Source: Ostreococcus lucimarinus (taxonomy: Eukaryota). From it: DNA of 64,000 bases. The DNA lies in NCBI GenBank assembly GCA_000092065.1, contig CP000598.1; one strand, written 5' to 3'. Shown one piece after another: positions 19,471 to 57,215 of the stretch; position 1 is the stretch's first letter; each line of letters starts with the position of its first letter. A program made the position numbers and the translations under genes. A model generated the notes under the pieces. The model made no database searches. It was given only the letters and a program-made list of their open reading frames with translations, and was not told the origin of the DNA.

Positions 19471-19954
19471 CCAAAAATAAACACAAGATAGTTTCGTCCT
19501 CGGAGCGACCTTCGGTGTAAAAGAATACAGACTGAGAGACTCACAGAACTAGCCTCTGACAGAACGTGGAGGGTAGAGGGGTCACCAGTGCTTTAACGAT
19601 CGAAAGACTTTGTCGAAGTGCCGCGTGTACATGAATTTCTGTGGTTTTATTCTCCCCGTTATCTCTGACGCGTGTCGGATCAATACCAGGTATGATATAT
19701 GGGTGAGTAATTTGTACATGAATACGGGAAGCTCGCCTAGGTTACCCCCGAAGGAGTAATCACTTTCGCGCCCCGCCGAACCGCCGTTCGTTTTCTGCGC
19801 GCCGGTGCGAGTGGCGTCAAAAGGCGCGGCGTCGCGTGGACATCGCGCGCAGCACTCGCGAACGCCCTCGAGGCGCGCGCGGTATTCGCGAGCATGTCGT
19901 CGAGATAATCTGCGAAAATCTAGACGCGCTCGACCGAGACGCCCGTCCGCCCGC

Positions 19955-25205: not shown

Positions 25206-25985
25206 ATGGGCACGAGAACGGACATCGTTTCGAGAGTGTGCGATGCGACGTCGTTACCGAAAAATGTTTACACGAGAAACGGCGGAAAAGCGACGAAAAA
25301 TAGTAAGTGGGCGTCGCTTTCGCGAGCTAAACTCGATGTGGTGGAGGACTTGATGCTTCACGGAGTCGGACCCGTGGTCTGGATCGACCTCGACACGCTC
25401 GTTTTCGTGGACTTGGCGCGCGCGTTTCAGCGCGGCGCGTCGACGTGGTTAGTAGGTTATCAGAGAGGAATGCAGTGTACCGGCTTGAAGAGTTGCGTTG
25501 GGTCACACTTTCGTTCCGTGCGTCCGGAGTTTGACGTGCTCGGCGACTTGTGGTCGCTCGATTTAGCCGCAATAGAGAAAGTGAGAGATTACGAACGCCG
25601 ATGGGTGTCGTCGCGATGGGTAAGAAAGCCGCCAAAGTACGATCTCCAGGCGTATTTCAGTCTCATGCTCGAAAATGGTGTACTGGCCGAGAACGTTTTG
25701 CTTCACAACATTCTACCGGACCTCAATTTTGGTTTCACGTGCTCAAACTTTGAGCACCCAACGTCGACTAATATGGAAATTTCTGTCGATAGCGACGACG
25801 CACAGCGTCTGAGGTGCCCTATTCCAAAAGGCGTGAAAATGTCACCGCGAGTAGGAACTCTTTCGTTCACCGCGTGGTCGTTTCAAAAGATGTTTTTGGA
25901 TGAAGAAAAGCCGACGTTTGATTCGCTTTCTGACGATCAAGATGTTCGCGCTTGGTTCGCGCGATGGTTTTACTCGCCGCTCTGA
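25206..25985 (+). CDS. Stand-alone paralog of the DxD-type N-terminal domain of 6042-8318. Probably 5'-truncated.
   Basis: 259 aa and co-linear with residues ~150-400 of the 6042-8318 protein. The homology continues upstream of the annotated Met (DVVPLETT vs GVIPLKTT) until an in-frame TGA at 25155-25157. So either this copy is truncated or the call starts internally. Confidence 0.5.
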   Translation: MGTRTDIVSRVCDATSLPKNVYTRNGGKATKNSKWASLSRAKLDVVEDLMLHGVGPVVWIDLDTLVFVDLARAFQRGASTWLVGYQRGMQCTGLKSCVGSHFRSVRPEFDVLGDLWSLDLAAIEKVRDYERRWVSSRWVRKPPKYDLQAYFSLMLENGVLAENVLLHNILPDLNFGFTCSNFEHPTSTNMEISVDSDDAQRLRCPIPKGVKMSPRVGTLSFTAWSFQKMFLDEEKPTFDSLSDDQDVRAWFARWFYSPL

Positions 25986-26027
25986 AAGAATTCGGCAGTA
26001 GTTGTCGCTAGATCGTAATATTTAATA

Positions 26028-27245
26028 CTATACCATACCTAAGGCGAGCTCATTCAGACGATGGGAAACGCCCTTGACGACGCGCTCGTACGTAAATTCT
26101 TGCATCAACGCGCGAGCATTTGCTGTGATATCACGCAACTTCGTTAGCGATTCGCCATCGGTGTTCGTGATAATCTTCGTTTTTTCCACTAAATCGTGCA
26201 AATCTCCAGATATTCCGATGTAATGTATCCCATCTACCAGCTTGTCGCTGTAATAGTGCTTGAAGTTTGACTTGACGAGGAACAGGACGCTCCCGCTTTC
26301 CATGCGCCAACGGTTTCCCCACGCGTCGACGTTTCCGTCGATTTCGAGGATACCTTTGTGCGTGATCCAATGCTGTTCCGATACGCGCGGGCTAATACGT
26401 ACATTCTTTTGTCCTCTACACGATTGTACCCTTCGCGTGATCTCGAGGTCGAGCCAAGGAACATTTATGGATGATTGCACCGCTCGCACGCGCGGAAGTT
26501 TAACGCACGCGGTAACCCTTTCGTTCCCGTCGACGCGAGTGGACTCTTCTACTTCGCATTTTGTTGACATACCGGACGTCGAGCCTCTCCAGAACACGTC
26601 GGATTTGCGTTCATCGAACGGAATCTCGCGTTCACGCAGGTTCCGAAGGAACAGTTTGAACCCGTCGCGCTTGATGAAGTGGAAGTTTGGCGCGAGCACG
26701 ACTGATTCGTCGGTGAAACAATTCGCATTGATAGAGTGCGCCAGGATGAAAACATTCAAGGATTTCAGCTCCCGTTGCAGCTTCCTCGGTAGAGACGCGT
26801 CGTCGTCAATCACCCATAGGAGTCGTATAGCTACGCCGCTTCGTTCTCCGCGATTCTTCCGCTGTTCCGAGGCGACGTCTCGGAGAAACCGCAGGGCACT
26901 TTTAAAGTAGCTACGATTCAGCGGTTGACGCCTACGTGCGACGAAGGTGTACGAAGACGGGGAAGATGCTTCCGGATGAAAGGTGAAACACGCGACGTCT
27001 TTGCCCAAGCCACGTAAACTGGATTTCAGCATTCGTTCCCTCACGTCGCCGCAGCAGTTCCGACAGTGCGTCCAAGCGTCTTCTCGTATCCAAAGTGCAC
27101 TGAAACTACCCAGCAAGTCCGCGATCGTGCGCGTGACGATCATGTATGATGACGAGAAACAAAAGCAGAGCAATAGAAGCAAACCAACTCGTCGCGCTCG
27201 TGTCTTCGCCATCGGCCCGCGTGTACGAAAGGAACAAACGTCCAA
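26028..27245 (-). CDS. GT90-family glycosyltransferase (CAP10/POGLUT-like). Copy 2.
   Basis: 405 aa with the same motifs as 9491-10696 (FWRGSTSGM, ILEIDGNVDAWGNRWRMESGSVLFLVKS, HYIGISGDLHDLVEKTKI). N-terminal TM RVGLLLLLCFCFSSSYMIV. Confidence 0.75.
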   Translation of the reverse strand: MDVCSFRTRGPMAKTRARRVGLLLLLCFCFSSSYMIVTRTIADLLGSFSALWIREDAWTHCRNCCGDVRERMLKSSLRGLGKDVACFTFHPEASSPSSYTFVARRRQPLNRSYFKSALRFLRDVASEQRKNRGERSGVAIRLLWVIDDDASLPRKLQRELKSLNVFILAHSINANCFTDESVVLAPNFHFIKRDGFKLFLRNLREREIPFDERKSDVFWRGSTSGMSTKCEVEESTRVDGNERVTACVKLPRVRAVQSSINVPWLDLEITRRVQSCRGQKNVRISPRVSEQHWITHKGILEIDGNVDAWGNRWRMESGSVLFLVKSNFKHYYSDKLVDGIHYIGISGDLHDLVEKTKIITNTDGESLTKLRDITANARALMQEFTYERVVKGVSHRLNELALGMV

Positions 27246-27409
27246 GTGTGAGCAGTACGTTTTTATCTCCTCAATTCAGAAGATTTACTGCGGTGCATGA
27301 AGCCTCGATAGCCTCTTCATGGCGACGCACTCTGCCGGGAACGACGCACGAGCATAATCCGCCACTCGAAGCCTCAGACGCTCCACGATTGGCTTCGGGC
27401 GAAGCACTG

Positions 27410-28339
27410 ATGCAGGCCTGCGAACGACTTGCACGTGTGTTGCGTTCGCATCGCGGCCTTGTAGTGGCACTCGCCGCGCCGTTCGCGCTCGTGCTGTACT
27501 TTAGCCATAGCTCTTTGGCTTTCAACAGTCGCAGCTCGAGTGACTCTGTGCCCTTGGCGGTGGTGAAGCTCAGCGGACGACCTCACGCAAAGCTCGCTCG
27601 CGCAGCGATAAACCCTGGCGAGTTTTCGATAGGAGTCGTTTTATGCAGCACGACGCGAGGCGTCGAAAACGTAGAGTGGGATCACCTGGCGCTCACTTCC
27701 ATAATGTTGCCCTCGCTGAAGAGCACCATGGAAGACGAATACACATACTTTTTGTACATCGGCGTGGACACGGATGATGAAGTTTACTCAACGCGAGAAG
27801 CGAAGAGTACGCTTTCTCGTCTCGCGGGTGACAACGTATCCGTCATCATAGACGCGTTCCCAAGAGTTGGCCAGCGCATCCCTATGAACCAAATATTGCG
27901 CCGCGCGTACGAGGACGGGATGGATTACATCGTCCGCGTCAACGACGATACTGAATTCGCCAGTATGATGTGGACTACGCTTTCAATTTCAGAGCTCATG
28001 CGAGGAACGCCTGCAAACATCGGTGTCGTAGGCCCCATCGTCAGCGGACCTCCGAATGTCAACGGGAATATTCTGACACACGACATGGTTCATCGAACAC
28101 ACATGGACATCTTCAACGGCGAGTACTACCCAGAGTGTTTTGAGAATGCATGGATAGATGATTGGATCACGCTTGTGTACGGACACAGATCGCGAGCTAT
28201 ATGGGAATGGCGAGTCCATCACCACACCGATCACCACGGCACTCGATATCGTACGCAGAAGCGGCAGAAACGATGGCTCGTCGGAAAAGTCAAGGATGGT
28301 CGACGTACTATAGACCTCTGGATACAAGCGCGGAACTAG
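27410..28339 (+). CDS. Putative GT-A-fold glycosyltransferase (DxD), membrane anchored.
   Basis: The ORF 27146-28339 overlaps the start of the divergent GT90 gene, so the start is more likely the Met at 27410 (MQACERLARVLRSHRGLVVALAAPFALVLYF, which is a TM). It has DYIVRVNDDTEF and WIDDWITLVYG acidic motifs typical of GT-A enzymes. The family is not resolved. Confidence 0.5.
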   Translation: MQACERLARVLRSHRGLVVALAAPFALVLYFSHSSLAFNSRSSSDSVPLAVVKLSGRPHAKLARAAINPGEFSIGVVLCSTTRGVENVEWDHLALTSIMLPSLKSTMEDEYTYFLYIGVDTDDEVYSTREAKSTLSRLAGDNVSVIIDAFPRVGQRIPMNQILRRAYEDGMDYIVRVNDDTEFASMMWTTLSISELMRGTPANIGVVGPIVSGPPNVNGNILTHDMVHRTHMDIFNGEYYPECFENAWIDDWITLVYGHRSRAIWEWRVHHHTDHHGTRYRTQKRQKRWLVGKVKDGRRTIDLWIQARN

Positions 28340-28782: not shown

Positions 28783-30459
28783 GTGCGAAGCGAAGTGTCG
28801 GCGCGTGGTGGGCGAAAACAACGAAGGATGTCCGCGCGGCGACGAGCGCGCTTCCCGGTGACGTCGTGGACTTCTGGAGACGCCGCGCGGTGGAGTTTTT
28901 ATGCATGCGCCTTTTGCGCGCTCCTCGTGTTGCGCTCGAGCGCTCGTCGAGGCGTCGAAACCGCGTCGAGCAAATATACGCATACGCGAGACTTTGAGCA
29001 CAAAAGTCGAACACCAGAGACGGTGGTGTGGTCGACGGATTTGCACGCCGGTCCAATCGGATGTCAAGTATCGATGTTTGCGACGCTAAACATCGACGTC
29101 GAAGCGGAAGTGGATGTTCCGAATTGCAAATATTTCCAAAACGGCAGAGGCGAAAACCTTTGCGCCTCGGGTCGGGGTCTTCGAAACGATCAAAATCGTG
29201 GATTTTCTCTCGACCCTCACCCGAACAACACGCGACGAAGACTTTATACGCACTTTAGTGCAAACGGGGATTTTTCGCGTGCAGATGTTGTGTTTTGTTC
29301 GCACCCGGCGGCGAACTGCGAAATATATTTACCGTTTGATAAATCGATTCTGATTTACAACACGCAGAGACTAGAATTCGGTCGAGACGACGAATTCATT
29401 TGGTGGCGAGAACCAATCATTGGAGCAGATAGACGCGAGCGCTGGGAGCATTGGGTACACAATTTGAAAGCCATCTCACGGTCGAAGGCCAACGTCGTGG
29501 CGGCGAATAACATGTACGACGTCACGCACATGGAGTACTTCACAGGCATCGAGACAAAATACATTCCTTCGTGGTGCGGTGGTCTCCCGCGAGAGATCGT
29601 GGAGAAAAGTTCATATCGACCTCAGCACAGGGAGATTGTTCTCACGCCGTACCGAGTTAATCTGGAGTATGCGAAAGAGACGATTCCCGAGAGAGGCTGG
29701 CCAGACCAACGTCGTAAGATGTATAAAAATCCATTGACGCACCCGATATTCGATGATCTTATGCAGCTTAAATCGAGATTTGAGCTCATCAGCATGAAAC
29801 AAGCATTTCCAAAACATGGAAAATTCAAAAGTATCCATGACTTTCAAAACTTTCGCGCCGTCGTGCTGATTCCGTATGTACCCTCGACGATGTTCTTCTT
29901 TCAGCTTTATCGCGCGTGCGTACCGATTTTGGTGCCTTCGCGCAAATTGCTGGCGCGTTGGGTCGCCGAGCACGGCATACTTTGGGAAACTTCATACGGA
30001 GATCCTGTGCGCGTCAATGAGACGATGCACTCGCACTTGTCAAATCCAAGTAATTTTGACGCCGTGAGCAGGGAGCGTTGGATGGAGTTCTACGACGTGT
30101 ATCAAACTGAAGTGTTTCCACATATTTTGTACTTTGACAACTGGGAACGCGCTGCACAGATAGTTGAAAGCACAAATTTAGAAACTGTTTCCGAAAACAT
30201 GCGACTTCACAACGTGAACGAGTTTCATCGCATCAGAAATTTATGGCGTGGCACGTTCGAGCAGATGGCTACGAACAGGAAAGCTCGCGGTGGATCGGTG
30301 TCAGCGACTAGAGAATCGCAGCCACGTGTGCTTTCTGTAGACATAAACACTGCGTTGATGCGCCAGTACGAGCTCGAACCGCTTTCATTCGCGACTGAGA
30401 GCGAGGTATTGGGCTTTTTCAGTCGAATTACTCGGGGTGGTATTTTCGGTCGTCGATGA
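28783..30459 (+). CDS. Putative GT-B-fold glycosyltransferase, membrane anchored.
   Basis: 558 aa. TM WSFYACAFCALLVL. FRAVVLIPYVPSTMFFFQLYRACVPILVPS parallels the C-terminal motif of 22744-24342. Confidence 0.5.
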   Translation: MRSEVSARGGRKQRRMSARRRARFPVTSWTSGDAARWSFYACAFCALLVLRSSARRGVETASSKYTHTRDFEHKSRTPETVVWSTDLHAGPIGCQVSMFATLNIDVEAEVDVPNCKYFQNGRGENLCASGRGLRNDQNRGFSLDPHPNNTRRRLYTHFSANGDFSRADVVFCSHPAANCEIYLPFDKSILIYNTQRLEFGRDDEFIWWREPIIGADRRERWEHWVHNLKAISRSKANVVAANNMYDVTHMEYFTGIETKYIPSWCGGLPREIVEKSSYRPQHREIVLTPYRVNLEYAKETIPERGWPDQRRKMYKNPLTHPIFDDLMQLKSRFELISMKQAFPKHGKFKSIHDFQNFRAVVLIPYVPSTMFFFQLYRACVPILVPSRKLLARWVAEHGILWETSYGDPVRVNETMHSHLSNPSNFDAVSRERWMEFYDVYQTEVFPHILYFDNWERAAQIVESTNLETVSENMRLHNVNEFHRIRNLWRGTFEQMATNRKARGGSVSATRESQPRVLSVDINTALMRQYELEPLSFATESEVLGFFSRITRGGIFGRR

Positions 30460-30800
30460 AGCACGCCGTAGAGGAACCGCTCGTTTTAATCAGCGCTCTG
30501 AGACTGTGTAAAAGTCGATGTTGATTTACATTAATGTACTAGCGCATAAATAGGTCGTATTTTTAGCTTTGTCGATATTCAAAATATTGTGACACAAGTT
30601 CCTGGGTCGCGAGCGAATAGACAGACTGTTCGCATTCACTACCGACTGCGAGGATGTCGCGGACGCTGATTCCGTTGTTTTCTTCAAACAAATCGAACAC
30701 GTCTTTCGGTTGGGTGTGCGTTTCGAACTCCCCACGATGCGTGTGCACGTCGAGCAGGCGCGCGCGCTCACGCACGAAAGCCAACGATGACCACGCGTCG

Positions 30801-31075
30801 CGCGCGCGCGGCGCAGAGTGCGCGTCGACGAGCCGAGCAAATGTCTCGCGCCGCGCCGCGCACGTTTTGTGTGCGTCCATCTCATCACGTGATGCCCTAT
30901 AAATTCGTAAAATACGATACTTGCGACGTACAAGACGAACGGTGTTTTTATAAATTGTGGCGACGTTTTCGCCCAGGGATATTTCGCGCCCGTCGCGTCG
31001 CCGCGGTCATGGCGGTCGCGCGCTCGTTACGTACCGACGCCGTCGCGCGCGATGTCACAGGCGAACGGAAAGCGC
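30801..31075. repeat. Direct repeat copy 1 (about 275 bp, about 90% identical to 31402-31690), downstream of the cold-shock gene.
   Basis: gcgcgcggcgcagagtgcgcgtcgacgagccgagcaaatgtctcgcgccgcgccgcgcacgttttgtgtgcgtccatctcatcacgtgat...ttataaattgtggcgacgtttt... recurs 601 bp downstream. Confidence 0.85.
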
Positions 31076-31372
31076 GGGCTCCGCGGTACCGGTCTTCGCC
31101 TCGCCCTTGAGTAACCGGTTCCGTTGCCGCCGCTTCGGCGCCCCTTTCACCGCCGCGCCGTTCGGCCCGGTCACGTTCACGGCCACGGGCCTCCCGTCGG
31201 CGTTGCTGACTTCGTACTCAACCTCCTCGTCCTCCCACGCCGACCGGAACCCCGCGCGCGAGATCCCCGTTTGGTGCACGAATATCTCTTCGCTTCCGTC
31301 GTGCGGTGTGATGAACCCGAATCCTTTCGTGACGTTGAACCATTTCACCTTCCCGCGCGCGCGCGCGCCCAT
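31055..31372 (-). CDS. Cold-shock-domain protein (CspA/Y-box type CSD).
   Basis: MGARARGKVKWFNVTKGFGFITPHDGSEEIFVHQTGI...EGEEVEYEVSNADGRPVAVNVTGPNG. RNP1 (KGFGFI) and RNP2 (IFVHQ) motifs are present, followed by a short basic tail. Confidence 0.8.
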   Translation of the reverse strand: MGARARGKVKWFNVTKGFGFITPHDGSEEIFVHQTGISRAGFRSAWEDEEVEYEVSNADGRPVAVNVTGPNGAAVKGAPKRRQRNRLLKGEAKTGTAEPALSVRL

Positions 31373-31401
31373 CGCGCGCGGCGACGTCGCGTCGCCCCAC
31401 G

Positions 31402-31690
31402 CGCGCGCGGCGCGGAGTGCGCGTCGACGAGCCGAGCAAATGTCTCGCGCCGCGCCGCGCACGTTTTGTGTGCGTCCATCTCATCACGTGATTGTCTAGA
31501 AATTCGTAAAGTACGACACTTGCGACGTACAAGACGAACGGTGTTTTTATAAATTGTGGCGACGTTTTTCGCCCACCTGGGCCGCGGTGGGATATTTCGC
31601 GCCCGTCGCGCGCCGCGGTCGCGCGCTCGTTACGTACCGACGCGGTCGCAGACGAACGGGAATGTCGCAGACGAACGGGAAACGCGATGG
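31402..31690. repeat. Direct repeat copy 2. It contains the 5' region and start codon of the ColD-like fusion gene.
   Basis: See copy 1. The ATG at 31662 lies inside this repeat. Confidence 0.85.
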
Positions 31691-33908
31691 CGACGGCACA
31701 GGCGACGCCGCGCGCGGGGACTGGAAGGCCGTCGTCGCCGATGAGTACGCGCGCCGCAGCGGCGTGTACGCCGCGCCCGACGAAACCTCGTTCCCGCTCA
31801 TCGCGTCGAGCATTTTTTCGGAAGAAATCATCGCCGCCGTGGACTCCATGCTCAGCGGACAGCTCACTATGGCAAATAACGTTCGCGAATTCGAGCAGGC
31901 GTTCGCAAAGTACGTCGGGGCGCCGTTCGCGGTGATGTGCAACTCTGGCAGCTCGGCGAATCTTCTCGCGCTGGCGGCGTTGACGAATCACCTGCGTTCG
32001 AAAAAGCTCTGCGCCGGGGACGAAGTGTTGATCCCGGCGGTGTGCTGGTCCACGAGTTTGTGGCCGATCGTACAAATGGGCCTGATTCCAGTGTTCGTGG
32101 ACGTGGACGTGGCGACGATGAACGTGGACTTGGACGACTTGGAAGCGAGAATCACGGATAAGACGCGAGGCGTGCTCGCGGTGCACGTCCTCGGCAACAT
32201 GTGCGATATGGACAGGCTGATGGATATTTGTGCCCGTCGCGACTTGCTCCTCGTCGAAGACACGTGCGAATCGCTGGGAAGCACGTACGGCGGGAAGTGC
32301 GTGGGGACGTTTGGGAGTTTTGGCTCGTACAGTTTTTACTTTTCCCACCACATCACCACGGGCGAAGGTGGAATGGTCGTGTGTCAGACTCAAGAAGACG
32401 CCGATCTCGTCCGATGCTTGCGCGCGCACGGCTGGACGCGCGAGCTTTCTAACAAAGATGAGTTACACGAACAAAACGCGCACATAGATTCGCGTTTCAT
32501 GTTCGTCAACGTCGGGTACAACTTGCGCCCCATGGAAATCTCTGGGGCTGTCGGGAAGTGCCAGCTTCTTCGTCTGGACTCGATGAACGCCAACAGAAAA
32601 GAAAACCGCGAGCGCTTGCTTCGAGCTCTGCAGTCGCACGATAAATGGAACGATCAATTCCGCTTCCCGGTCGCCCCGAATGCGTCCGCCGACCCGGCGT
32701 GGTTCGGCTTCGTGGCCGTGCTTCGACGCGATCTGCAGAAGCGCCTGCCGACGTATTTGGAATTTCTCACCAGACACAAGATTGAAAATCGTCCAATCAT
32801 CAGCGGTAACTTTGTGCACCAGCCGGCGATCAAAACTTTGGGATTGAGCGTTGACCCGAACGGATATCCTGGCTCGGACGAGCTGGGCACGTGCGGGTTT
32901 TTCATCGGCGTGCACACGTATCGCCTGTCGGATGCGCAGATCTCGTACCTCGCCGACACCATGCTCGCCTTCGACTTTGACTGCGCCGTGAACAGAAAAG
33001 TCGTGCTCGTGACTGGTGGCAGCGGTCTCGTCGGTCGAGCGCTCAAAGAACACGTCAAAACATCGGCGAACACAAACGATTCATGGATTTTTACATCTTC
33101 CAAAGATGCTGATTTGTGCTCTTACGACGAGACGAAGAGGCTCTTCGAGCGATATCGCCCGACGCACGTCATTCACCTCGCGGTGAAGCTCATGGCGGGC
33201 GGCGACATGTCGAAAATGGCGGCGAGTCTCATTCAGGATAACAACGCGATTAACGCTAATGTTCTTCGTTGCGCGCACGAAATCGACTGCGACAAGGTTG
33301 TCTCTGTCTTATCTTCTTTCGCTTACCCGAAAGACGTGAGTTTGCCGATCACAGAAAAGCGACTGCACGACGGTCCTTGCCATCCGTTGTATGAGTCTTA
33401 CGGTTCGTCAAAGCGTAACCTCGAAATTCTATCGCGCGCCTACCGCGCGCAACATGGTAGGAAGTTCGTCACCGTCATTCCGAGCAATATATTTGGAACC
33501 ATATCGCAACTGCGCGAGGGTGGTCCGGTCATCGACGCGCTCATGAGCAAGGCTGCGCAATCCGCGGCTACAGGTTCTGAATTCACATGCAGAGGCACCG
33601 GTGCGCCGTGCCGTCAGTTCTGCTACGCACCCGATCTAGCGCGCGTGCTCATTTGGTCTTTGGAACATTACGACGAAGAAGAGCCAATAAATGTCGCTGG
33701 GGAAGAGATCAGCATACGCGCCGTGGCGGAGCTCATCGCCAACATGTTCGGCGTCGAGAAACGCTTGTCGTTTGACGCGTCGTTTCCAGATGGGCCCATG
33801 TACCGCACGCTAAGCGATGATAAGCTCCGACGTCTGTATGAAGGTTACGAGCAAACCGATTTCGAAACGGCACTTCGAAGCGTCGTCGCACGCGTCATCA
33901 ACGCGTAA
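31662..33908 (+). CDS. Bifunctional fusion: an N-terminal DegT/ColD-type PMP-dependent GDP-4-keto-6-deoxy-D-mannose 3-dehydratase-like domain, and a C-terminal GDP-L-fucose synthase/ColC-like (GMER) 3,5-epimerase/4-reductase domain.
   Basis: 748 aa from the ATG at 31662 (the track ORF starts at a TTG). The N-domain FPLIASSIFSEEIIAAVDSMLSGQLTMANNVREFEQAFAKYVGAPFAVMCNSGSSANLLA ... SFYFSHHITTGEGGMVV is DegT-family, with His-His where aminotransferases have the Schiff-base Lys. That substitution is the ColD/E1 dehydratase hallmark, and the His falls at about 189 of the domain. The C-domain KVVLVTGGSGLVGRALKEH...SSKDADLCSYDETKRLFERYRPTHVIHLAV...YGSSKRNLEI...VIPSNIFGT...GTGAPCRQFCYAPDLARV is co-linear with GDP-fucose synthase, including YxxxK. 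Confidence 0.85.
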   Translation: MSQTNGKRDGDGTGDAARGDWKAVVADEYARRSGVYAAPDETSFPLIASSIFSEEIIAAVDSMLSGQLTMANNVREFEQAFAKYVGAPFAVMCNSGSSANLLALAALTNHLRSKKLCAGDEVLIPAVCWSTSLWPIVQMGLIPVFVDVDVATMNVDLDDLEARITDKTRGVLAVHVLGNMCDMDRLMDICARRDLLLVEDTCESLGSTYGGKCVGTFGSFGSYSFYFSHHITTGEGGMVVCQTQEDADLVRCLRAHGWTRELSNKDELHEQNAHIDSRFMFVNVGYNLRPMEISGAVGKCQLLRLDSMNANRKENRERLLRALQSHDKWNDQFRFPVAPNASADPAWFGFVAVLRRDLQKRLPTYLEFLTRHKIENRPIISGNFVHQPAIKTLGLSVDPNGYPGSDELGTCGFFIGVHTYRLSDAQISYLADTMLAFDFDCAVNRKVVLVTGGSGLVGRALKEHVKTSANTNDSWIFTSSKDADLCSYDETKRLFERYRPTHVIHLAVKLMAGGDMSKMAASLIQDNNAINANVLRCAHEIDCDKVVSVLSSFAYPKDVSLPITEKRLHDGPCHPLYESYGSSKRNLEILSRAYRAQHGRKFVTVIPSNIFGTISQLREGGPVIDALMSKAAQSAATGSEFTCRGTGAPCRQFCYAPDLARVLIWSLEHYDEEEPINVAGEEISIRAVAELIANMFGVEKRLSFDASFPDGPMYRTLSDDKLRRLYEGYEQTDFETALRSVVARVINA

Positions 33909-34034
33909 TACATCGGCTGTTTGACGATATACATCTTGTAAAAGTCGCATTTGTATGTCGCATACAGCTATGATGAGATAGTTCAGTAAGCGTAGCTCAA
34001 CGCTTTGTAAGTTGATCTACAAACTCTATAAACT

Positions 34035-34940
34035 CTACTTTTTCGTGCCGGCAAAGCTGTAGTGCGCCGCGCAAATCATCACGATAGCAGCGCCGGCGAC
34101 AGTCGACTCGGACAAGGTGGAGTAATCCATAAAGTATGCGGTAAAAAATATCAGCGCAAACTTGTTGGTGTTGTTGAGTATCGTAATACTCGTCGGGGTG
34201 ATCAAGCGATTGAGCTGAAACGCGGAAACGCTCAAGCAAAATCCTAGCGTGCACGAAACGAAGAGTGCGACGCACTGCGATTTTGTCGCGCCGCTCGCCA
34301 TAAACTTTTGTAGCGTCTCGTTTTCTCTTTGAGCGAACCCGACGATGGCGCACACGGGTAAGGATAGTAAGTTATTATAGTACGCCATGGTCCAGCTGTT
34401 CATATCGAGCTCGTTCACGAGCGATTTGACCTTGATTTGATACGCCGTCGTCGCCGCTACGTTCACCGCAAGCCAGGCGTACCCCGTAAAGTCAAAATTC
34501 GAAGCCGCGTCCAGATCGCCCGACGCGTACACCAACGACCCTGCGCACATTCCTAATATCGCCAAAATCCTCGGTTTCGTCTGCACCGTGCCCAGACAAA
34601 AATAATCCGCTATGGCGATCGTCACCGTACCTAAATTTCTTTGCACTATGAGCGTCGTCGCCGTCACGAACTTGAGCGCCAGCATGGACGACGCGAGCAT
34701 GGCGTAAAACAAAAGCACGAGCGCGAACCAACGTTTGGCTTTATGTCGCCGCACCGGCTCGATCTGCAGACTCAGCACCGATTTCCCGAACGCGAGCAAC
34801 ACCAGCGTCACCGCGTTTTGCGCGAACAGCACCGCGTTCGGGGCGGGGAAGAACCCCATGATTTGTTTATTCAGCACGGTGAGCGCGCTGCCGGATAGAC
34901 AAAACGCCGCGGCGACCAAGGTGATCGTGACGACCGCCAT
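34035..34940 (-). CDS. Nucleotide-sugar transporter (TPT/SLC35C-VRG4-like, GDP-sugar transporter type).
   Basis: About 302 aa from the Met at 34940 (MAVVTITLVAAAF). There are about 10 hydrophobic helices. ITILNNTNKFALIFFTAYF resembles the NST GALNK region. The longer track ORF (start 35216) has a low-complexity N-terminus. Confidence 0.65.
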   Translation of the reverse strand: MAVVTITLVAAAFCLSGSALTVLNKQIMGFFPAPNAVLFAQNAVTLVLLAFGKSVLSLQIEPVRRHKAKRWFALVLLFYAMLASSMLALKFVTATTLIVQRNLGTVTIAIADYFCLGTVQTKPRILAILGMCAGSLVYASGDLDAASNFDFTGYAWLAVNVAATTAYQIKVKSLVNELDMNSWTMAYYNNLLSLPVCAIVGFAQRENETLQKFMASGATKSQCVALFVSCTLGFCLSVSAFQLNRLITPTSITILNNTNKFALIFFTAYFMDYSTLSESTVAGAAIVMICAAHYSFAGTKK

Positions 34941-36259
34941 CGCGACGGCTGCGTGTCGTCCGCCGTCGCGCGCGATCGCGTCGTCCGGTTTCGCGTCGAC
35001 TCGAGGCCCGCCGTCTCGCGAGCCGCGCCGACGACTGACTCGCGCGCGTTTTGAATTCGTCCGTCGATTTCCGGAATTCCAAAATTCCACGTCAAAATTT
35101 TGCGCCGCGCCGCGTCCGGCTGGCGCCGCACCACTCCGCACGGGCGATCGCGCCCGGAAAGCGATCGGATCGTCGGGAAACTGATCAATAAACGACGTGC
35201 AATATTTTGATAGCATTAATATATTATTAAATATGATAATTCAGATCCGTCTGGTCATCGCAAACCCTGGATCCTTCGGACTGTGCTGATTCGACCCCCT
35301 GGAAATTTCAGACAGTTTCCCAAACGAGGCCCGTTTTTTCAAACGCCACCAGTGAGTTTTTTGAGCCCATTTGACCGACCGTGACTCAAGAACGACCCCC
35401 TCATTGTGTACATTCACTACTCTACGCGCGCGACGCGCCCGCGAACGCGCGAGAAAAGCGCACGGCGCGGTCGTACACGAACTTTTTTCTCTTCGCAGCG
35501 ACTTTTACGCGTCGAGACGTCCCAGCGACGGCTGGGGATCGCCATTTGATGCGATTTTGGACGATTTTGGCATTCGAGTCCCACGTGCTAAGTTGAGTCA
35601 TGACTCGTCAAATTTAGTAAAATTCAACACGCTTTTGCGGCGCCGTGAACGCGCACTTCGAAATAAAAACAAATTCACATCGCGTGAATCATTTGAGGTA
35701 AGCTTGAACGTTCAGAATACTCCGTGAAACTGCCTTGAACACCTTCGATTAAGATGTCAAACGTGTCGAATTTGGTACTTTTTTGTGAATTTGGGATATT
35801 TCACGCCGCGTTATCTCTCAATCGCGCGCTTTCCCCGCACGTCGGTTGACCTACACGCTCGTGAAATGTCTGAATGACCCCCTGTTTCAGGGGATCTGGA
35901 AACTGTCTGAAATTTCCAGGGGGTCGAATCCGCAAAGTCCCGGAAATTTCGAAAATTTGGATTCCTGCGCAGCGGGTGTCCCGCGATGATGATCGAAATC
36001 GTCTCGCATCATCGTATTCAGAGATGTATGAAATCTATGAAAATACGAAATGTGATTTAAATCAGTTTTTCCCGACGCCGCACCGACGTTCGTTTCTGCG
36101 CGCGCCGGTGCGCGCGGCGCCAATAGGCGAGGCGTCGCGTCGAGATCTCGTGAGCGTCGTCATCGAGCGCCCTCGAGGCGCGCGCGGTATTCGCGAGCAT
36201 GTCGTCGAGATAATCTCCGAAAATCTAGACGCGCTCGACCGAGACGCCCGTCCGCCCGC

Positions 36260-37450
36260 ATGCGCATCCTTCTCACCGGTGGCGCCGGCTTCATCGGCTC
36301 GCACGTCGCCGAGCGCCTCGCGTCGAGGCATCCCGAGTACACGGTGCGCGCACGATTTCGACCACGTGTGCGTGCGTCGAACAACGCACGGACTTTGCAC
36401 CCATCTCTCGCGCGAACGACTGACCGCGAACGACTCGTCGCGCTCGGACAGATTGTCGTCCTGGACAAGCTCGACTATTGCTCGAGCTTGAAAAATCTCG
36501 AACGCGCGAAAGAATGCGCGAACGTGCGGTTCGTCAAGGGCGATGTGCGTTCGTTCGATTTATTGAGTTACGTCTTGCAAAGCGAGCGCATCGACACCGT
36601 CGTGCACTTCGCCGCGCAGAGTCACGTGGACAACTCTTTCGGGAACTCGTACGAGTTCACGAAGAATAACATCGAGGGCACGCACGCGTTACTCGAGGCG
36701 TGCGTGCGAGCGCAGACGACCGAAATTCGACGATTCCTGCACGTGTCCACGGATGAGGTATACGGGGAAAATCTCATGGATTCAAACACCGAGCACGCGG
36801 CGCTCCTGACGCCCACCAACCCGTACGCCGCGACCAAGGCGGGCGCGGAGATGCTCGTCATGGCGTACGGACGCTCGTACGGATTGCCGTACATCATCAC
36901 TCGCGGAAACAACGTGTACGGGCCGAATCAGTATCCAGAGAAGGCGATTCCAAAGTTTTCAATCCTCGCGAAACGCGGGGAAAAGATTTCTATACACGGC
37001 GACGGCGACGTGACGCGTTCGTACATGCACGTCGACGATGCGGGTTCGGCGTTCGACGTCATTCTCCACCGCGGAACGCCGGCGCAGATTTATAACATCG
37101 GCTCGCGCGAAGAACGGACGATCTTGTCCGTCGCTCGGGATGTCTGTAAGCTCCTCGATCGCGACCCGGAAACGACCATCGAGCACGTGAGCGATCGAGC
37201 CTTCAACGACCGAAGATATTTCATCGATTGCTCAAAGCTTTTAGCGCTCGGATGGCGACAAGAAAAGTCCTGGGACGTCGGTCTCGCGGAAACCGTGCGT
37301 TGGTACTCGAATAACGATTTGAGCGCGTACTGGGGCGAATTCTCACCCGCGTTGCGCCCGCACCCTTCGGCGAGCGCGGATGGGCGACGACGATCGCTCG
37401 AGTTTGATTTCACGAATGATTCTGACGATCGCGCGACACCGACTTTGTAA
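36260..37450 (+). CDS. dTDP/UDP-glucose 4,6-dehydratase, copy 2. Here the 108-nt intron equivalent (36344-36451) is in frame and lacks stops.
   Basis: 396-aa continuous ORF. Apart from the 36-aa insert VRARFRPRVRASNNARTLHPSLARTTDRERLVALGQ between HPEYT and IVVLDKL it matches RmlB-type dehydratases end to end. About 97% nt identity to 19955-21144. Confidence 0.85.
   Translation: MRILLTGGAGFIGSHVAERLASRHPEYTVRARFRPRVRASNNARTLHPSLARTTDRERLVALGQIVVLDKLDYCSSLKNLERAKECANVRFVKGDVRSFDLLSYVLQSERIDTVVHFAAQSHVDNSFGNSYEFTKNNIEGTHALLEACVRAQTTEIRRFLHVSTDEVYGENLMDSNTEHAALLTPTNPYAATKAGAEMLVMAYGRSYGLPYIITRGNNVYGPNQYPEKAIPKFSILAKRGEKISIHGDGDVTRSYMHVDDAGSAFDVILHRGTPAQIYNIGSREERTILSVARDVCKLLDRDPETTIEHVSDRAFNDRRYFIDCSKLLALGWRQEKSWDVGLAETVRWYSNNDLSAYWGEFSPALRPHPSASADGRRRSLEFDFTNDSDDRATPTL
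36344..36451 (+). other. Intron (GT...AG, 108 nt) of dehydratase copy 2. It is in frame, so a retained-intron isoform would still be translatable.
   Basis: Positional homolog of the frame-breaking 107-nt intron in copy 1. The 36 extra residues are absent from the dehydratase family consensus. Confidence 0.65.
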
Positions 37451-37779
37451 TACGCGCATCTATCTTCCTCGGGCGCGAGTATCACTTTGCGCGTCCATGT
37501 AATTATTTGCGGCGCGCTGTTGGAGGCGGGTTGAAAAACACCCCGCGTGGCGTCACGCGTCACTCACCGCCTCGCTTCGCTCGATTATGACACGCGTCTC
37601 AATCGCTTGAGAGGAGGCAGAGAAAGCATGCTTTCCTAGCAACAGCCTTTATTTTTCGACCGAGGCGCGGACGAGTCGCGGGGACGCCGCGACGGCGTTC
37701 GGTTTTCGCGAAGGGAAACGACGCACTGAGGGGTGACGCGCACGACCGTTGGGGCGGAGGGGCGTTTTTCTAAGCGGCG

Positions 37780-39192
37780 ATGGATCATGGATGCCAACCA
37801 CCACGGACGTTTCAAGCGAGGCACTCGTGTCGACTGTGGTTCGTTTTCACCGTCTCAGTGGCGTGCGTCGTCGTCGGATCGCGCGGGGCGTCGTACGGAA
37901 CGTACGAGAACGACGGCGGTGTCACTCGGGAGCGGCGCGCGGATCGTGCGCGACGACCGGCTATAGAGTCTAGATCATCCTTGAGCGAAGTGACTCGTGA
38001 AACGTACGAGCGCGCACGAACGGTCTTCGAGGAATTTTTAAATGAGCGGAGCGCGCAGTGCGGGCGCGCGTTCACGGAGACGCGCACGCACTTTGGCGCT
38101 CCCGTGGAAACACCTCCATACCCTGGGGGACCTCCTCCTGGTACCGGTGCGGTGCTCACAGAGATGGTGCGAGCTGCGGCGGCGGCGTGGCATAGAAACA
38201 TGTCGTACGTGATGCGTGGTAAATGGGCGTTGGTTTCGGATAGCGACTGCGCTGAGGCAGAGTTTCAAGGATTTGCCTGCATGTTCCCAGGATTGTCGCG
38301 CTCGTGTCGAGCCTTGGAAGGTGAAAACCCGATGTTGAATTTACAAGACGCGCAAGACTTCTGGCGTCACTGGAGCAAAAATCTCAGCGTTGATGCGATT
38401 TTTTTATTTGGGCTCGCCGCGGATGCGCTGACAGACGTCCGTCGCGCGAGCGTCAAAGTGAAGAGTTTTCTCGAACACGACCTATCGAGTGCATTAGCGG
38501 GATCTGAGAGCGAAGGAATCGCAGTCGGTATACATTTTCGCAACCGTGGAGATATCAGACTCGATGGGAGATTGAGGATACCTCTGGAGCGTTACGTCGA
38601 GTGGGTGGATGGGCTTGGGAATTCAACGAAAATTCGTGCCGTTTACGTCGCCACAGATCACGATGGACTGGATGTTCGCGAGCTCAACGAGCGTTTTCCC
38701 GGTCGTTCGTACGAATTCCGAATGATCAAGCGTTTGTGGGCACCAGCGACCGCCACAAACCTGTGGCAGACGACGACGACGGCGACGGCGGGTGGTTTGA
38801 AGTTTGAAACCGCGAAAACACAAATGGTCGTCGAGGCGTTGAGCGACATCAACATTCTCTCGCACTGCGACGCATTTCTCGGCTCGATATCAAACTTTTT
38901 GCCCTTCATCATGTCGCTTTTACACGCGCGGGATCCACTTCGTGAACGCGGTCGTATTTGCGGTTTCATGAACACAAACGTAACCACTTTCGGAGGTCAC
39001 GCCGCGGCGGAAGAACTCACGAAAGCTACGAGCGAATTCGCCTCGGGGCTGGATGACGCGCACGCCGGAGACGTAGGATCAAAGGAAGCGATCGTTTCGT
39101 GTGTTGGGGATAGATCGTTACGCGACTATTGGATGGTGCTTTACGGGCATAACATTCCGAGCGAGACCGTAGACGTGCTGCCCCTGCGATGA
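37780..39192 (+). CDS. Putative GT23/NodZ-like fucosyltransferase-family glycosyltransferase, membrane anchored.
   Basis: 470 aa. TM LWFVFTVSVACVVVG. VGIHFRNRGD (the HxRRGD-like motif), VYVATDHDGLDVRELNERFPG and SDINILSHCDAFLGSISNFLPFIMSLL fit the three conserved GT23/O-FucT motifs. Confidence 0.6.
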   Translation: MDHGCQPPRTFQARHSCRLWFVFTVSVACVVVGSRGASYGTYENDGGVTRERRADRARRPAIESRSSLSEVTRETYERARTVFEEFLNERSAQCGRAFTETRTHFGAPVETPPYPGGPPPGTGAVLTEMVRAAAAAWHRNMSYVMRGKWALVSDSDCAEAEFQGFACMFPGLSRSCRALEGENPMLNLQDAQDFWRHWSKNLSVDAIFLFGLAADALTDVRRASVKVKSFLEHDLSSALAGSESEGIAVGIHFRNRGDIRLDGRLRIPLERYVEWVDGLGNSTKIRAVYVATDHDGLDVRELNERFPGRSYEFRMIKRLWAPATATNLWQTTTTATAGGLKFETAKTQMVVEALSDINILSHCDAFLGSISNFLPFIMSLLHARDPLRERGRICGFMNTNVTTFGGHAAAEELTKATSEFASGLDDAHAGDVGSKEAIVSCVGDRSLRDYWMVLYGHNIPSETVDVLPLR

Positions 39193-41189: not shown

Positions 41190-42398
41190 TCATCCATCCA
41201 TAATAGTCAACTTATCCCCCGGAAGAATTTCACGGATATCAACGCACGCATCACCTTTAGGTTCGAAATTTTCGTCACACCAAGTACACCCCCCATGATG
41301 TACGCCGAGGCAAGCTGAACAGTTGGCAAAGTGAAGCAAGTACGACGCGACGGCGGCGCCCTTTGCCCGCGGCGGTTTGTGCGCAAACCAATGCTCTAGA
41401 AAGCTGTAATGAAAAACTGGCCCTATGTTTACGACTGGGTTAATCTCTACTTGAAAGTGCGCGTCGGTCACGGTTCGCGCCATGAACGCAGCTAATTCTC
41501 GGAAGAAATCGCTGTGTGGTTTCCCCGCCGCCATGACGCTGCTCAACACGTCTATTTTCGAACTAAAATCAGCCAAAAGAGGAGAGATGACGTCCGGTTT
41601 GCTCGAATCAAAGTGCTGATATATCCCACCGCGACTCTCATCGCCCGGTTCGAGCACCATGAGCGCCTCGAACTCGCTCAAAATTGGCCGCCACGACTTC
41701 TTGCATTCCACGTCCAAGTCAAACGCCAATCCTCCAAACTTTTCAAGTAAAAGCGGTCGCGACATTTCCGCCAATTTCAACCCATGGTTCGATCGCGAGC
41801 TGTTCATTTTACGCACGGCCTCGTCCATGCCCTCGATTCCACTTTCTTTGGCGTACTCGTCCAAAAACTTGGCGATGCCCTTGTCGGTGAAGAACACGTA
41901 TCGCAAATCCGGCATGCACTCGAGGAACGATTTTATAAACGGCGCTTTCACGGCCGGCACGCACGTGGTCTTCCACGTGAGAAATCTCGTGTATTCTCGT
42001 CGCGATGCGCCCTCGCACGCGTATTCGGTTTGCGGGAGATCGTTTCCGCGCAAAACGTACTCGTCCCAAACGCGCGTGGGCGTCGCGCTCGCCGCGCCTT
42101 CTCTCACCTCGCGCACGCGACGAGGCGCGTCGCACGGTGCGTCACCATCGTCGCCGTCTTCGCGCGGATCGTTCGCGAATGCATCGTCGCCGCCGTCGGA
42201 CGTCGCGCGCGCGAATCCACCGTCGCCCCGTCCCGAGGCTCGCGACACGTCGGCGGCGAGCCCAGGGCGCGCGCGCGCCCGCCTCGAGCCCGAGAACAGG
42301 CGTCGTTCGCGCGACGACGCGACGACGCACGCCGTACCGAGCAGCGCGACGGCGATGAAAACGCGCTTACTCCGCCCCGCGCGCACCTTGCCCGTCAT
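41190..42398 (-). CDS. GT32-family (Och1-like) glycosyltransferase, membrane anchored.
   Basis: 402 aa. TM VFIAVALLGTACVVA. AEMSRPLLLEKFGGLAFDLDVECKKSWRPIL matches ADILRYxILYxYGGVYLDTDFECLKP. Confidence 0.65.
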   Translation of the reverse strand: MTGKVRAGRSKRVFIAVALLGTACVVASSRERRLFSGSRRARARPGLAADVSRASGRGDGGFARATSDGGDDAFANDPREDGDDGDAPCDAPRRVREVREGAASATPTRVWDEYVLRGNDLPQTEYACEGASRREYTRFLTWKTTCVPAVKAPFIKSFLECMPDLRYVFFTDKGIAKFLDEYAKESGIEGMDEAVRKMNSSRSNHGLKLAEMSRPLLLEKFGGLAFDLDVECKKSWRPILSEFEALMVLEPGDESRGGIYQHFDSSKPDVISPLLADFSSKIDVLSSVMAAGKPHSDFFRELAAFMARTVTDAHFQVEINPVVNIGPVFHYSFLEHWFAHKPPRAKGAAVASYLLHFANCSACLGVHHGGCTWCDENFEPKGDACVDIREILPGDKLTIMDG

Positions 42399-42594
42399 CG
42401 ACGACGACCGCGCGTTCGCGTTCGCGTTGTGGGGCGACGTCGCGACGGGCGCGCGTTCGCCCCGAGTCGTCGGCGCGCTTCAAAGCTCGACGCGGAGACG
42501 AATTCGATCGATCCGACCATCGCGCACCGCGAATGTCCGACGCGTCACGCGAACCGGCGCGCGTCGAGTAGAGCGACTCGGCGCGCGCGCCGCG

Positions 42595-43395
42595 ATGCGC
42601 GTGCTCGTGCTCGGGTCGAGCGGGTTGATCGGCGCACCCTTGGTGGCTCGTCTTCGTCGCGCCGGTCACGATGTCACGGAATGGGACGTCGCCATGGATC
42701 GCGCGCACGATTTAACGGACGCCGCGAACGTGCCTGGCGCGCGCGACGCGATCGAGTCGAGTGATTTCGTCTTCTTTCTCGCCTTTGACGTCGGCGGCGC
42801 AAAGTACATCAGTACTCCCACCGCGAGTTTCATCCATCGAAACAGTCTCTTGATGGCGAACACGTTTAGTTTACTGCACGGCAAGCGGTTCGTTTTCGCC
42901 TCGAGCACGATGTCAAACATGGACGTCCCTTACGGCACTTTAAAACGTCTCGGCGAGCACTACACGAGCGTGCTCTCTGGAATCTCTGTGCGATTCTGGA
43001 ACGTCTACGGTCCTCAAAAGTACGGCGAGAGATCGCACGTGATCACCGATTTTATTCACAAGCTTCGAACGACCGGTTCGATTACCATGATGACTTCTGG
43101 CGCAGAAAAGCGCCAGTTTCTGCACACAGAAGACTGCGCGCGGTGTTTGGAAACAATCGCCGCGCACTACGACGAGATGCCACCCGTAGTAGACGTCACG
43201 AGTTTCGAGTGGACGACTGTTAGGGAGCTGGCTGAGTTGCTTTGCGATGACGTGGTCGCTCGTAACGACAACCGAGACAGCCACACGAAGTCGAACGAAC
43301 CGAGTCCGTTCATCCTTAGTTACTGGCGCCCCGCGATAAGTTTACGAGAAGGCATCGCGCAACTGCTCGCAGAATCAAGGACGGCGAAACGTTAA
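42595..43395 (+). CDS. NAD(P)-dependent epimerase/reductase of the extended SDR family (RmlD/4-ketoreductase-like).
   Basis: About 266 aa from the ATG at 42595. MRVLVLGSSGLIGAPLVARLRRAGHDV is the Rossmann GxxGxxG. PYGTLKRLGEHY is the YxxxK catalytic dyad. The long upstream part of track ORF 41659-43395 is antisense to the GT32 gene and is spurious. Confidence 0.65.
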   Translation: MRVLVLGSSGLIGAPLVARLRRAGHDVTEWDVAMDRAHDLTDAANVPGARDAIESSDFVFFLAFDVGGAKYISTPTASFIHRNSLLMANTFSLLHGKRFVFASSTMSNMDVPYGTLKRLGEHYTSVLSGISVRFWNVYGPQKYGERSHVITDFIHKLRTTGSITMMTSGAEKRQFLHTEDCARCLETIAAHYDEMPPVVDVTSFEWTTVRELAELLCDDVVARNDNRDSHTKSNEPSPFILSYWRPAISLREGIAQLLAESRTAKR

Positions 43396-53023: not shown

Positions 53024-53196
53024 TGCGAGCTATACCTTATATGATGGTGAGCAATCGGGCCTAGTGCGTCGATAAGTGATGATAATTACAATCAGTTGTG
53101 GTTAGTTCATTAATGAGTGTTAACTCGTCAATTAGTCCCGCTAGGTTACTAGGGGAAGCTACTATATTTCATATTTTACTCTTCAGATTTCTAACA
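53024..53196 (-). repeat. 3' LTR (in element orientation) of the copia element.
   Basis: Identical to 58579-58751. Confidence 0.9.
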
Positions 53197-53213
53197 CACC
53201 TCCTTAGCTTTCT

Positions 53214-57212: not shown

Positions 57213-57215
57213 TCA

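Follow-up and report, generated by a model that had tools for sequence, protein, structure and literature searches.

In sugar 3-dehydratases, a histidine replaces the lysine of the aminotransferases and serves as the catalytic base (PMC8987622). E1 (RfbH/DdhC, CDP-6-deoxy-L-threo-D-glycero-4-hexulose 3-dehydrase) and SpnQ depend on a [2Fe-2S] motif of four cysteines and on an external reductase, whereas ColD (WbdK; GDP-4-keto-6-deoxy-D-mannose 3-dehydratase of E. coli O55 and Yersinia pseudotuberculosis) has no cluster; it hydrolyses its intermediate, and its pyridoxamine 5'-phosphate (PMP) is restored from glutamate (PMC8987622). In the bacterial colitose route, ColD is combined with ColC (GDP-L-colitose synthase), a protein of the GDP-L-fucose synthase (GFS) family, also known as GMER, Fcl or, in humans, TSTA3. 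In GFS, Cys109 as base and His179 as acid drive the C3/C5 epimerisation; the Campylobacter jejuni homologues DdahC and MlghC have no such dyad and are reductases only, and DdahC gained no epimerase activity when the Cys was restored (PMC7949155). In C. jejuni, the product of a ColD-like C3-dehydratase, when reduced by GFS-family C4-reductases without the C5 epimerase, yielded GDP-3,6-dideoxy-D-arabino- and D-lyxo-heptose, and the L-series needs a separate cupin C5 epimerase (PMC10440746). Here we analysed a window of 64,000 nts from the green alga Ostreococcus lucimarinus (assembly GCA_000092065.1, contig CP000598.1), in which a single open reading frame (ORF) joins a ColD-like 3-dehydratase to a relative of GFS and lies next to a gene for a nucleotide-sugar transporter. 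The probable product of the fused enzyme is a rare GDP-3,6-dideoxy sugar destined for the cell surface; L-colitose is probably not made.

The fused gene and its parts have the following positions in the window (SDR, short-chain dehydrogenase/reductase).

31662-33908, + strand: fused gene, 748 amino acids and stop; ColD-like 3-dehydratase joined to GFS-like 4-reductase in a single ORF
31779-32966, + strand: N-terminal domain, residues 40-435; ColD-type, PMP-dependent sugar 3-dehydratase
32343-32351, + strand: Ser228-His229-His230; His229 (32346-32348) is the counterpart of the catalytic ColD His188 and replaces the aminotransferase Lys
32994-33905, + strand: C-terminal domain, residues 445-748; extended SDR from the GFS family; its predicted role is the NADPH-dependent reduction of the C4 keto group, with no epimerisation
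33312-33413, + strand: SDR triad Ser551 (33312-33314), Tyr580 (33399-33401) and Lys584 (33411-33413), equivalent by alignment to Fcl Ser107/Tyr136/Lys140
33318-33320, + strand: Phe553, at the position of Fcl Cys109 (epimerisation base)
33525-33527, + strand: Pro622, at the position of Fcl His179 (epimerisation acid)

The frame is free of stops from 31554 to 33908 (+ strand) and its first ATG, at 31662, gives a product of 748 amino acids. An earlier note on this DNA, made from its letters alone, had proposed that both halves belong to one polypeptide; this is borne out by a 748-codon ORF with no in-frame stop between the halves, and the note's coordinates and description of the fused gene and of the neighbouring transporter were correct. 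Pfam assigned residues 54-394 to DegT_DnrJ_EryC1 (PF01041, E 5.5e-79) and residues 448-678 to the NAD-dependent Epimerase family (E 3.7e-35). An AlphaFold2 model built from 61 homologues reached a mean pLDDT of 90.8, with a pTM of 0.65 that leaves the mutual orientation of the two domains unfixed. When this model was compared with the PDB using Foldseek, the best matches were ColD (2gms; TM 0.91 on the target, rmsd 2.5 A) and human GFS (4bl5; TM 0.93, rmsd 1.5 A), followed by E1, Naegleria GFS and GDP-perosamine synthase. The E-values obtained for the fusion and for the transporter are far beyond chance.

The identical 748-residue product is encoded on 121 contigs in public collections. In the collection searched, it lacks the NCBI or UniRef accession that its neighbours have, and the gene is probably unannotated, or modelled otherwise, in the reference annotation. 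Relative to orthologues on two metagenomic contigs (L089 and L091), the ratio of nonsynonymous to synonymous substitutions (dN/dS) was 0.09-0.10 for the whole fused gene; it was 0.05-0.06 for the N-terminal domain, 0.09 for the C-terminal domain and 0.13 for the transporter. These values (dN/dS 0.05-0.13) indicate purifying selection on the two domains and on the transporter alike. All cofactor and catalytic residues that were checked are conserved.

Upstream of the fused gene, a 176-nt direct repeat (30794-30969 and 31393-31568, 94% identical) brackets a gene for a cold-shock-domain protein (31055-31462, - strand). The repeat ends 94 nts 5' of the fusion ATG and overlaps the stretch by which the ORF extends upstream in frame. 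A scan of positions 30000-37600 against Rfam gave no match.

The closest solved relative of the N-terminal domain is E. coli ColD (2gms, E 1.6e-83), with residues 44-433 aligned to ColD 6-388; Yersinia E1 (3bcx) was matched at E 1.8e-65. The homology to ColD is full-length. The domain contains the motif SFYFSHHITTGEGG, which HMMER aligned with ColD ...SFYSHHIATMEGG, and the segment FYFSHHITTGEGG is in register with that same ColD sequence. In the deposited mutant chains of ColD, the corresponding stretch reads SNHIA (H188N, 3b8x) or SKHIA (H188K, 2r0t). Because these chains change the first His, this residue is ColD His188 and its equivalent in the fusion is His229. The reading of the earlier note, that the Schiff-base position holds a His and not a Lys, was upheld, as His229 aligned with His188 in the comparison with the wild-type, H188N and H188K chains. 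The Ser-His-His sequence was recovered by a motif search in 107 of 109 fused homologues and is invariant in the two homologue alignments, A2 and A3.

E1 has the same fold, also carries His for Lys and is the top NCBIfam match of the N-terminal domain. However, E1 requires a [2Fe-2S] cluster and the E3 reductase, and its Cys-rich segment (...CYCAPGCDNTC...) lies opposite a gap in the N-terminal domain, whereas RAHGWTR is common to this domain and ColD. Lacking the [2Fe-2S] cysteine motif, the N-terminal domain is, as judged from its sequence, of the ColD type and not of the E1 type. The Asp-x-x-Glu and Ser residues that surround the cofactor in ColD are conserved as well. In addition, the relatives of the domain usually adjoin gmd, the gene for GDP-mannose 4,6-dehydratase (GMD). 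The domain nevertheless differs from ColD in several respects. It is only 38% identical to the E. coli protein and is closer to an uncharacterised bacterial clade, with 57-59% identity to stand-alone proteins of uncultured Bdellovibrionota-like bacteria, known from metagenome-assembled genomes (MAGs), and of other bacteria. Furthermore, the predicted dehydratase is here fused to a reductase, and its genes belong to nuclear genomes of eukaryotes and to genomes of giant viruses.

The C-terminal domain matched human GFS (E 6e-60, 40% identity) and E. coli Fcl (27% identity) from end to end, and is more similar to eukaryotic GFS than to bacterial Fcl/ColC-like proteins (24-31%). With ColC and GFS it has in common the extended SDR fold, a glycine-rich segment (VLVTGGSGLVG) that we take to be the nucleotide-binding motif, and the Ser-Tyr-Lys triad, intact in 97 of 109 fused homologues. 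The co-linearity with GFS reported in the earlier note, including the SDR Tyr-Lys pair, is therefore confirmed, with Ser551, Tyr580 and Lys584 in register. Like ColC, the domain is proposed to act after a 4-keto intermediate. In contrast, the epimerisation dyad is missing, its two positions being occupied by Phe553 and Pro622.

To place this loss, various groups of related proteins can be compared. In 13 of 13 diverse fused homologues that were aligned, the positions of Cys109 and His179 hold F, M or V and P, respectively, and the Pro is invariant in alignment A2 and nearly so in A3. None of the 105 database proteins with the same N-to-C order of domains has the Cys/His dyad, and about 92 of them have a hydrophobic residue and Pro in its place. 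By contrast, using the Fcl-like genes beside colD homologues as a stand-in for characterised ColC, Cys and His are kept in 31 of the 33 Fcl-like genes located within 1.4 kb of bacterial colD-like genes (distance <=1.4 kb) and, at viral loci, in all but one of 16 full-length stand-alone Fcl-like genes with an intact Ser-Tyr-Lys triad. On the basis of this survey, loss of the dyad is a defining trait of the fusion family and not an alignment artefact; nor does it reflect decay, as the triad is intact in most homologues and the C-terminal domain evolves under constraint. The statement that this domain performs exactly the ColC step has therefore to be abandoned: ColC must epimerise C-5, and the residues for doing so are absent from all 105 fusions of this order.

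The same fusion architecture was found in Bathycoccus prasinos, on a chromosome of 160 kb that has the size of a small outlier chromosome (SOC), in a dinoflagellate transcriptome, in Phalansterium, in Chromera velia, in the bdelloid rotifers Rotaria and Adineta and on many marine metagenome contigs. It is also present on contigs carrying giant-virus hallmark genes (Evr1/Alr, RNase III, Pox_A22, RNA polymerase, PCNA). Only 3 of 80 viral loci are truly fused, many apparently full-length matches being adjacent colD and colC genes. At one giant-virus locus (L088), the fusion gene lies beside FkbM methyltransferases and adjoins a gene (7367-9055) in which an Fcl-like SDR domain is joined to a GT11 (fucosyltransferase-family) domain. 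Another Fcl-like SDR and GT11 protein of the giant-virus type (P0303) carries an FkbM methyltransferase domain in addition. Among animals, the named matches are bdelloid rotifers only, and no homologue was found in nematodes, where one was sought as a link to the tyvelose of Trichinella.

Fusions that keep the dyad also exist. On two giant-virus contigs of 133 kb and 330 kb (L093 and L094), an N-to-C ColD-Fcl fusion (5890-8070) retains Cys and His, and so do four fusions of the reverse order, Fcl-ColD (P0088, P0240, P0282 and P0305). These proteins are better candidates for single-polypeptide GDP-L-colitose synthases. As for the origin of the dyad-less family, the nearest relatives of its N-terminal domain are bacterial and its C-terminal domain is closer to eukaryotic GFS, which suggests a chimeric origin, as judged from identities and not from a tree.

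The transporter gene is convergent with the fused gene.

33909-34034: spacer between the two convergent stop codons, 126 nts, AT-rich (37% GC)
34035-34940, - strand: nucleotide-sugar transporter of the GDP-mannose-transporter (Vrg4) lineage, 301 amino acids; the ORF is open to 35216

The Vrg4-like transporter was thus correctly placed downstream and in convergent orientation, with a gap of 126 nts instead of the 130 bp given before. In Vrg4, the FYNN motif on TM7 recognises guanine, its asparagines being critical, and the GALNK motif on TM9 discriminates the sugar, with Lys289 on the phosphate (PMC6789118). Among all PDB structures, the transporter matched GDP-mannose transporters of the SLC35 type only (9s35, 4.8e-16; Vrg4 5oge, 1.1e-7). 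It has YYNN (residues 187-190; 34371-34382) at the position of FYNN, with both Asn kept, and this type of motif (x-x-N-N) was found in 34 of 50 members of the transporter subfamily, the remainder giving no match to the pattern. The sugar motif, in contrast, is replaced by NNTNK (34161-34175), which shares only N-K, and thus the Lys, with GALNK. NN[T/A/V/S]NK is present in 45 of the 50 members of this small subfamily, whereas more distant members have G-x-L/M-NK. The divergent motif, together with a Phe at the position of Tyr28 of Vrg4, fits a cargo other than GDP-mannose, without proving which.

Four independent metagenomic contigs (L089-L092) carry the same convergent pair of transporter and fusion, partly duplicated in two of them, with transporters 81-82% identical and fusion domains 78-91% identical. 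As the other neighbours of the pair differ between these contigs, its recurrence supports a functional coupling of the two genes. The pairing is not found at every locus: no transporter was detected within +/-10 kb of the Bathycoccus copy of the fusion. A 363-residue gene downstream of a 79%-identical homologue (L004) was considered as a transporter and rejected, as it shows no similarity.

Several features point to GDP as the nucleotide, which we infer from relatives, gene neighbourhoods and GDP-sugar families. ColD is the closest characterised and solved relative of the N-terminal domain. A Gmd-like gene, 44-78% identical to E. coli Gmd, occurs in the flanking DNA at 49 of 80 bacterial and 37 of 80 viral loci with a colD-like gene, the typical order being gmd-colC-colD. 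The closest bacterial locus, in a Pseudobdellovibrionaceae MAG (L007, 1273-5284), pairs Gmd with a reductase whose best match is the GDP-6-deoxy-D-mannose reductase RMD (6x3b, 2.4e-26), alongside three glycosyltransferases and with no Fcl-like gene; this cluster may represent a bacterial non-epimerising route to a GDP-3,6-dideoxyhexose. One giant virus sets the fusion beside the Fcl-like/GT11 protein described above. Finally, the C-terminal domain and the transporter both descend from GDP-sugar families, and the transporter keeps the N-N of FYNN.

Combined, these results lead us to lean towards a bifunctional enzyme that makes a D-series GDP-3,6-dideoxyhexose, carried by the adjacent transporter and destined for surface glycans. 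In the proposed pathway, the cytosolic enzyme would act in two steps. The N-terminal domain, with PMP and with His229 as the base, would remove the 3-hydroxyl of an NDP-4-keto-6-deoxyhexose, most likely GDP-4-keto-6-deoxy-D-mannose supplied by a GMD whose gene lies elsewhere. The enamine would then be hydrolysed and PMP restored from glutamate, as happens in ColD, so that neither an Fe-S cluster nor an E3-type reductase would be needed, and the product would be GDP-4-keto-3,6-dideoxy-D-mannose. The C-terminal domain, derived from a eukaryote-type GFS without the dyad, would then reduce the 4-keto group with NAD(P)H through Tyr580 and would not invert C-5. The expected product is a GDP-3,6-dideoxy-D-hexose of the D-arabino (tyvelose) or D-lyxo configuration, and not L-colitose; it is the missing Cys109/His179 dyad that favours a dehydratase and reductase only, with a D-series product, over a GDP-L-colitose synthase. 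The transporter, a presumed diverged paralogue of GDP-mannose transporters that keeps the guanine-binding Asn and has its own sugar motif, would bring the product into the Golgi, where glycosyltransferases encoded on the SOC could attach it to surface glycans. The nearest precedent is the C. jejuni GDP-3,6-dideoxyheptose pathway, which likewise runs from a GDP-linked ColD-like C3-dehydratase to a dyad-less C4 reductase of the GFS family (PMC10440746, PMC7949155). It differs in that the sugar is a heptose, the enzymes are separate polypeptides of a bacterium and a cupin C5 epimerase is part of the natural route.

A number of observations weigh against this proposal. In the guanine pocket of human GFS, formed by Val187 and Trp208 (PMC7949155), the Val has a counterpart in the C-terminal domain (GPVID), but the guanine-stacking Trp208 is not conserved, being Arg in this domain and M, R, F, L or Y across the family. 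The C-terminal domain scores 151.8 bits with the NCBIfam model GDPFucSynFcl, below its cut-off of 500, and the top NCBIfam match of the N-terminal domain is RfbH (E1; 7.9e-91), at 304.9 bits also below its cut-off of 423. The Tyr28 that is Phe in the transporter is essential in Vrg4, and the transporter has no Pfam match (TPT/EamA) even at E <= 1, although more distant homologues carry PF03151. One relative whose dehydratase domain is 88% identical (L174, 860-2242) is an unfused protein of 460 amino acids, and the available 6.2 kb show neither a reductase domain nor a remnant of one. A tblastn search with E. coli Gmd found no GMD in the window, where the 4,6-dehydratases near the fusion are of the UDP/dTDP-glucose type only, one of them being syntenic with the transporter on L092. 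A cupin-type C5 epimerase elsewhere in the genome could turn the product into an L-sugar, and which of the two C4 epimers is formed cannot be predicted. In the literature searched, no 3,6-dideoxyhexose has been reported from Mamiellophyceae.

The explanation closest to the earlier note is that the protein is a true ColD-ColC fusion making GDP-L-colitose, with C-5 epimerised by non-canonical residues of the C-terminal domain or by a separate epimerase. The same two protein families would act in the order known from the bacterial colitose route, the bacterial and viral homologues lie most commonly in gmd-colC-colD clusters, genuine dyad-keeping fusions exist in both orders, and C. jejuni does combine a separate C5 epimerase with dyad-less reductases (PMC10440746). 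However, Phe and Pro cannot serve as acid or base at the dyad, and their kind of replacement is fixed in the 105 fusions of the same order; a Cys put back into C. jejuni DdahC did not give epimerase activity (PMC7949155), and a tblastn search with RfbC found no RmlC-like C5 epimerase in the window (E > 2). We consider colitose synthesis unlikely. A different substrate, of glucose configuration and carried on UDP, dTDP or CDP, could be delivered by a neighbouring gene, located 1.3 kb beyond the transporter, and would lead to an NDP-3,6-dideoxyhexose of the paratose or abequose type.

36260-37450, + strand: UDP/dTDP-glucose 4,6-dehydratase-like gene (TIGR01181, 2e-98; PDB 6vlo, 3.2e-80); not GMD

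The position of this gene, the homologue that adjoins the transporter on L092, the lack of GMD in the window, the RfbH/E1 match and the loss of the guanine-stacking Trp would all agree with such a route. Yet the Fe-S cysteines of the E1/SpnQ type are missing, the RfbH score is well under its cut-off, the C-terminal domain and the transporter both come from GDP-sugar families and the usual neighbour of the relatives is Gmd. Moreover, the dehydratase on L092 is a two-domain RHM-like protein, which suggests a self-sufficient route of the rhamnose type, and a second copy of the dehydratase gene, 16.3 kb away in the window, adjoins no fusion gene. Membership of the 36260-37450 dehydratase in the pathway of the fusion is thus uncertain, a separate rhamnose-type route being more likely for it, and a glucose-derived product appears improbable, more so than colitose. 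It is far less credible still that the gene is a horizontally transferred relic, decaying or without function, on a chromosome that evolves fast, or that its N-terminal domain is an aminotransferase. SOC genes have been called hypervariable and transfer-rich (PMC3491373), and the exact product lacks the accession that six of its neighbours have; against this, the frame is intact with a dN/dS of 0.05-0.10, the catalytic and cofactor residues checked are all conserved, the exact product recurs on 121 contigs, and homologues from the dinoflagellate, Phalansterium and Chromera are single-ORF entries in transcriptome-derived sets (EukProt/MMETSP). The His at the Schiff-base position argues against an aminotransferase. 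A dehydratase-reductase with a D-series GDP-linked product therefore remains the reading that we prefer.

The genomic setting agrees with a role in glycosylation. Six proteins encoded in the window (ABP00596/XP_001422279, ABP00597, ABP00625, ABP00637, ABP00608 and ABP00643) are residue-for-residue identical to annotated proteins of O. lucimarinus CCE9901, all on one record of 149,386 bp. The host is accordingly a eukaryote, as had been stated before, and these exact matches, the copia retrotransposon and the Golgi transporters rule out bacterial contamination. The window is part of chromosome 18 of CCE9901, the glycosylation-rich SOC of this species (PMC5082852; PMC3491373). It contains genes for FkbM methyltransferases, for glycosyltransferases of the GT32, GT61, GT90 and CAP59 types and for a UDP-GlcNAc 2-epimerase, two NDP-glucose 4,6-dehydratase genes, a second nucleotide-sugar transporter and a copia retrotransposon, in line with published descriptions of the SOC (PMC5082852; PMC3491373), whose genes are hypervariable and rich in transferred genes (PMC3491373).

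Several other features of the window were recorded. The 4,6-dehydratase gene at 36260-37450 contains an in-frame GT...AG insert of 108 nts (36344-36451) that interrupts the conserved stretch '...EY-x-IVVLDKLDY' and probably represents an intron that the ORF finder did not splice out. In its second copy (19760-21141, protein 94% identical), the coding sequence is split over two frames near the same place. These copies belong to direct repeats, 95-99% identical and 16.3-16.5 kb apart (9220-9692 and 25622-26229; 19859-20440 and 36164-36746), through which a GT90 gene and this dehydratase gene are each present twice. Between the repeated ends the two blocks carry different genes, the fusion gene and the transporter being in the second block only. 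The retrotransposon is a Ty1/copia-type element with long terminal repeats (LTRs) at 53024-58757; its 179-nt LTRs (53024-53202 and 58579-58757) are 99% identical, its pol ORF (53214-57146) has RVT_2 and integrase domains, and the O. lucimarinus annotation lists the gag-like ORF (57213-58391) as a CCHC-type protein.

Some ORFs of the window may be linked to sugar metabolism. A 441-residue ORF (12275-13600, - strand) has only faint matches, to two families of transferases that use GDP-fucose, O-FucT (E 0.028) and xyloglucan fucosyltransferase (E 0.057), and is a possible user of a GDP-6-deoxyhexose donor. A 578-residue ORF (41659-43395, + strand) ends in an SDR domain weakly similar to GFS and to GDP-mannose 3,5-epimerase (E 2e-9 to 1e-6), and its N-terminal 300 residues have no match. 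Four long flanking ORFs, at 28783-30459 (+ strand, with an N-terminal hydrophobic stretch), 27146-28339 (+ strand), 37780-39192 (+ strand) and 6042-8318 (- strand), gave no significant Pfam match at E <= 1 and are candidates for novel SOC glycosyltransferases.

Both enzyme families and the logic of the pathway were already known. New are the fusion and its dedicated transporter, the spread of the fusion in eukaryotes and giant viruses, and the systematic loss of the dyad. The view that such a fusion has not been described holds in part: no description of it, or of any eukaryotic or viral ColD-type enzyme, was found in the literature searched, but the fusion is abundant in sequence databases, where the entries carry automatic names only. 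A 2022 review of giant-virus glycans does not mention 3-dehydratase, 3-dehydrase or DegT, and its matches to 'ColD' and 'dideoxyhexose' are unrelated words and the title of an aminosugar paper in the references. The accompanying view that 3,6-dideoxyhexoses are bacterial sugars was too strong, since tyvelose caps the N-glycans of Trichinella (PMC6272458).

As a broader and more tentative proposal, several eukaryote supergroups and giant viruses might share a one-polypeptide route to a GDP-3,6-dideoxy-D-hexose not known in nature, either GDP-tyvelose or the sugar epimeric to it at C4, with an enzyme built by joining a bacterial ColD to a dyad-less eukaryotic GFS. Ostreococcus would have added a dedicated Golgi transporter on the chromosome that has been implicated in resistance to prasinoviruses, and the sugar would form part of the variable surface code in the arms race between alga and virus. 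If this is true, the synthesis of 3,6-dideoxyhexoses would be no bacterial speciality and would extend widely among marine protists, bdelloid rotifers and giant viruses, and the enzyme architecture, and probably also its product, a D-series GDP-3,6-dideoxyhexose, would be ones that have so far gone uncharacterised. The fusion would stand as a clean case of a chimeric enzyme, in which a horizontally acquired bacterial domain is joined to a duplicated host-type enzyme stripped of its second activity, and the 'viral immunity' chromosome of Ostreococcus would gain a concrete and testable biochemical output.

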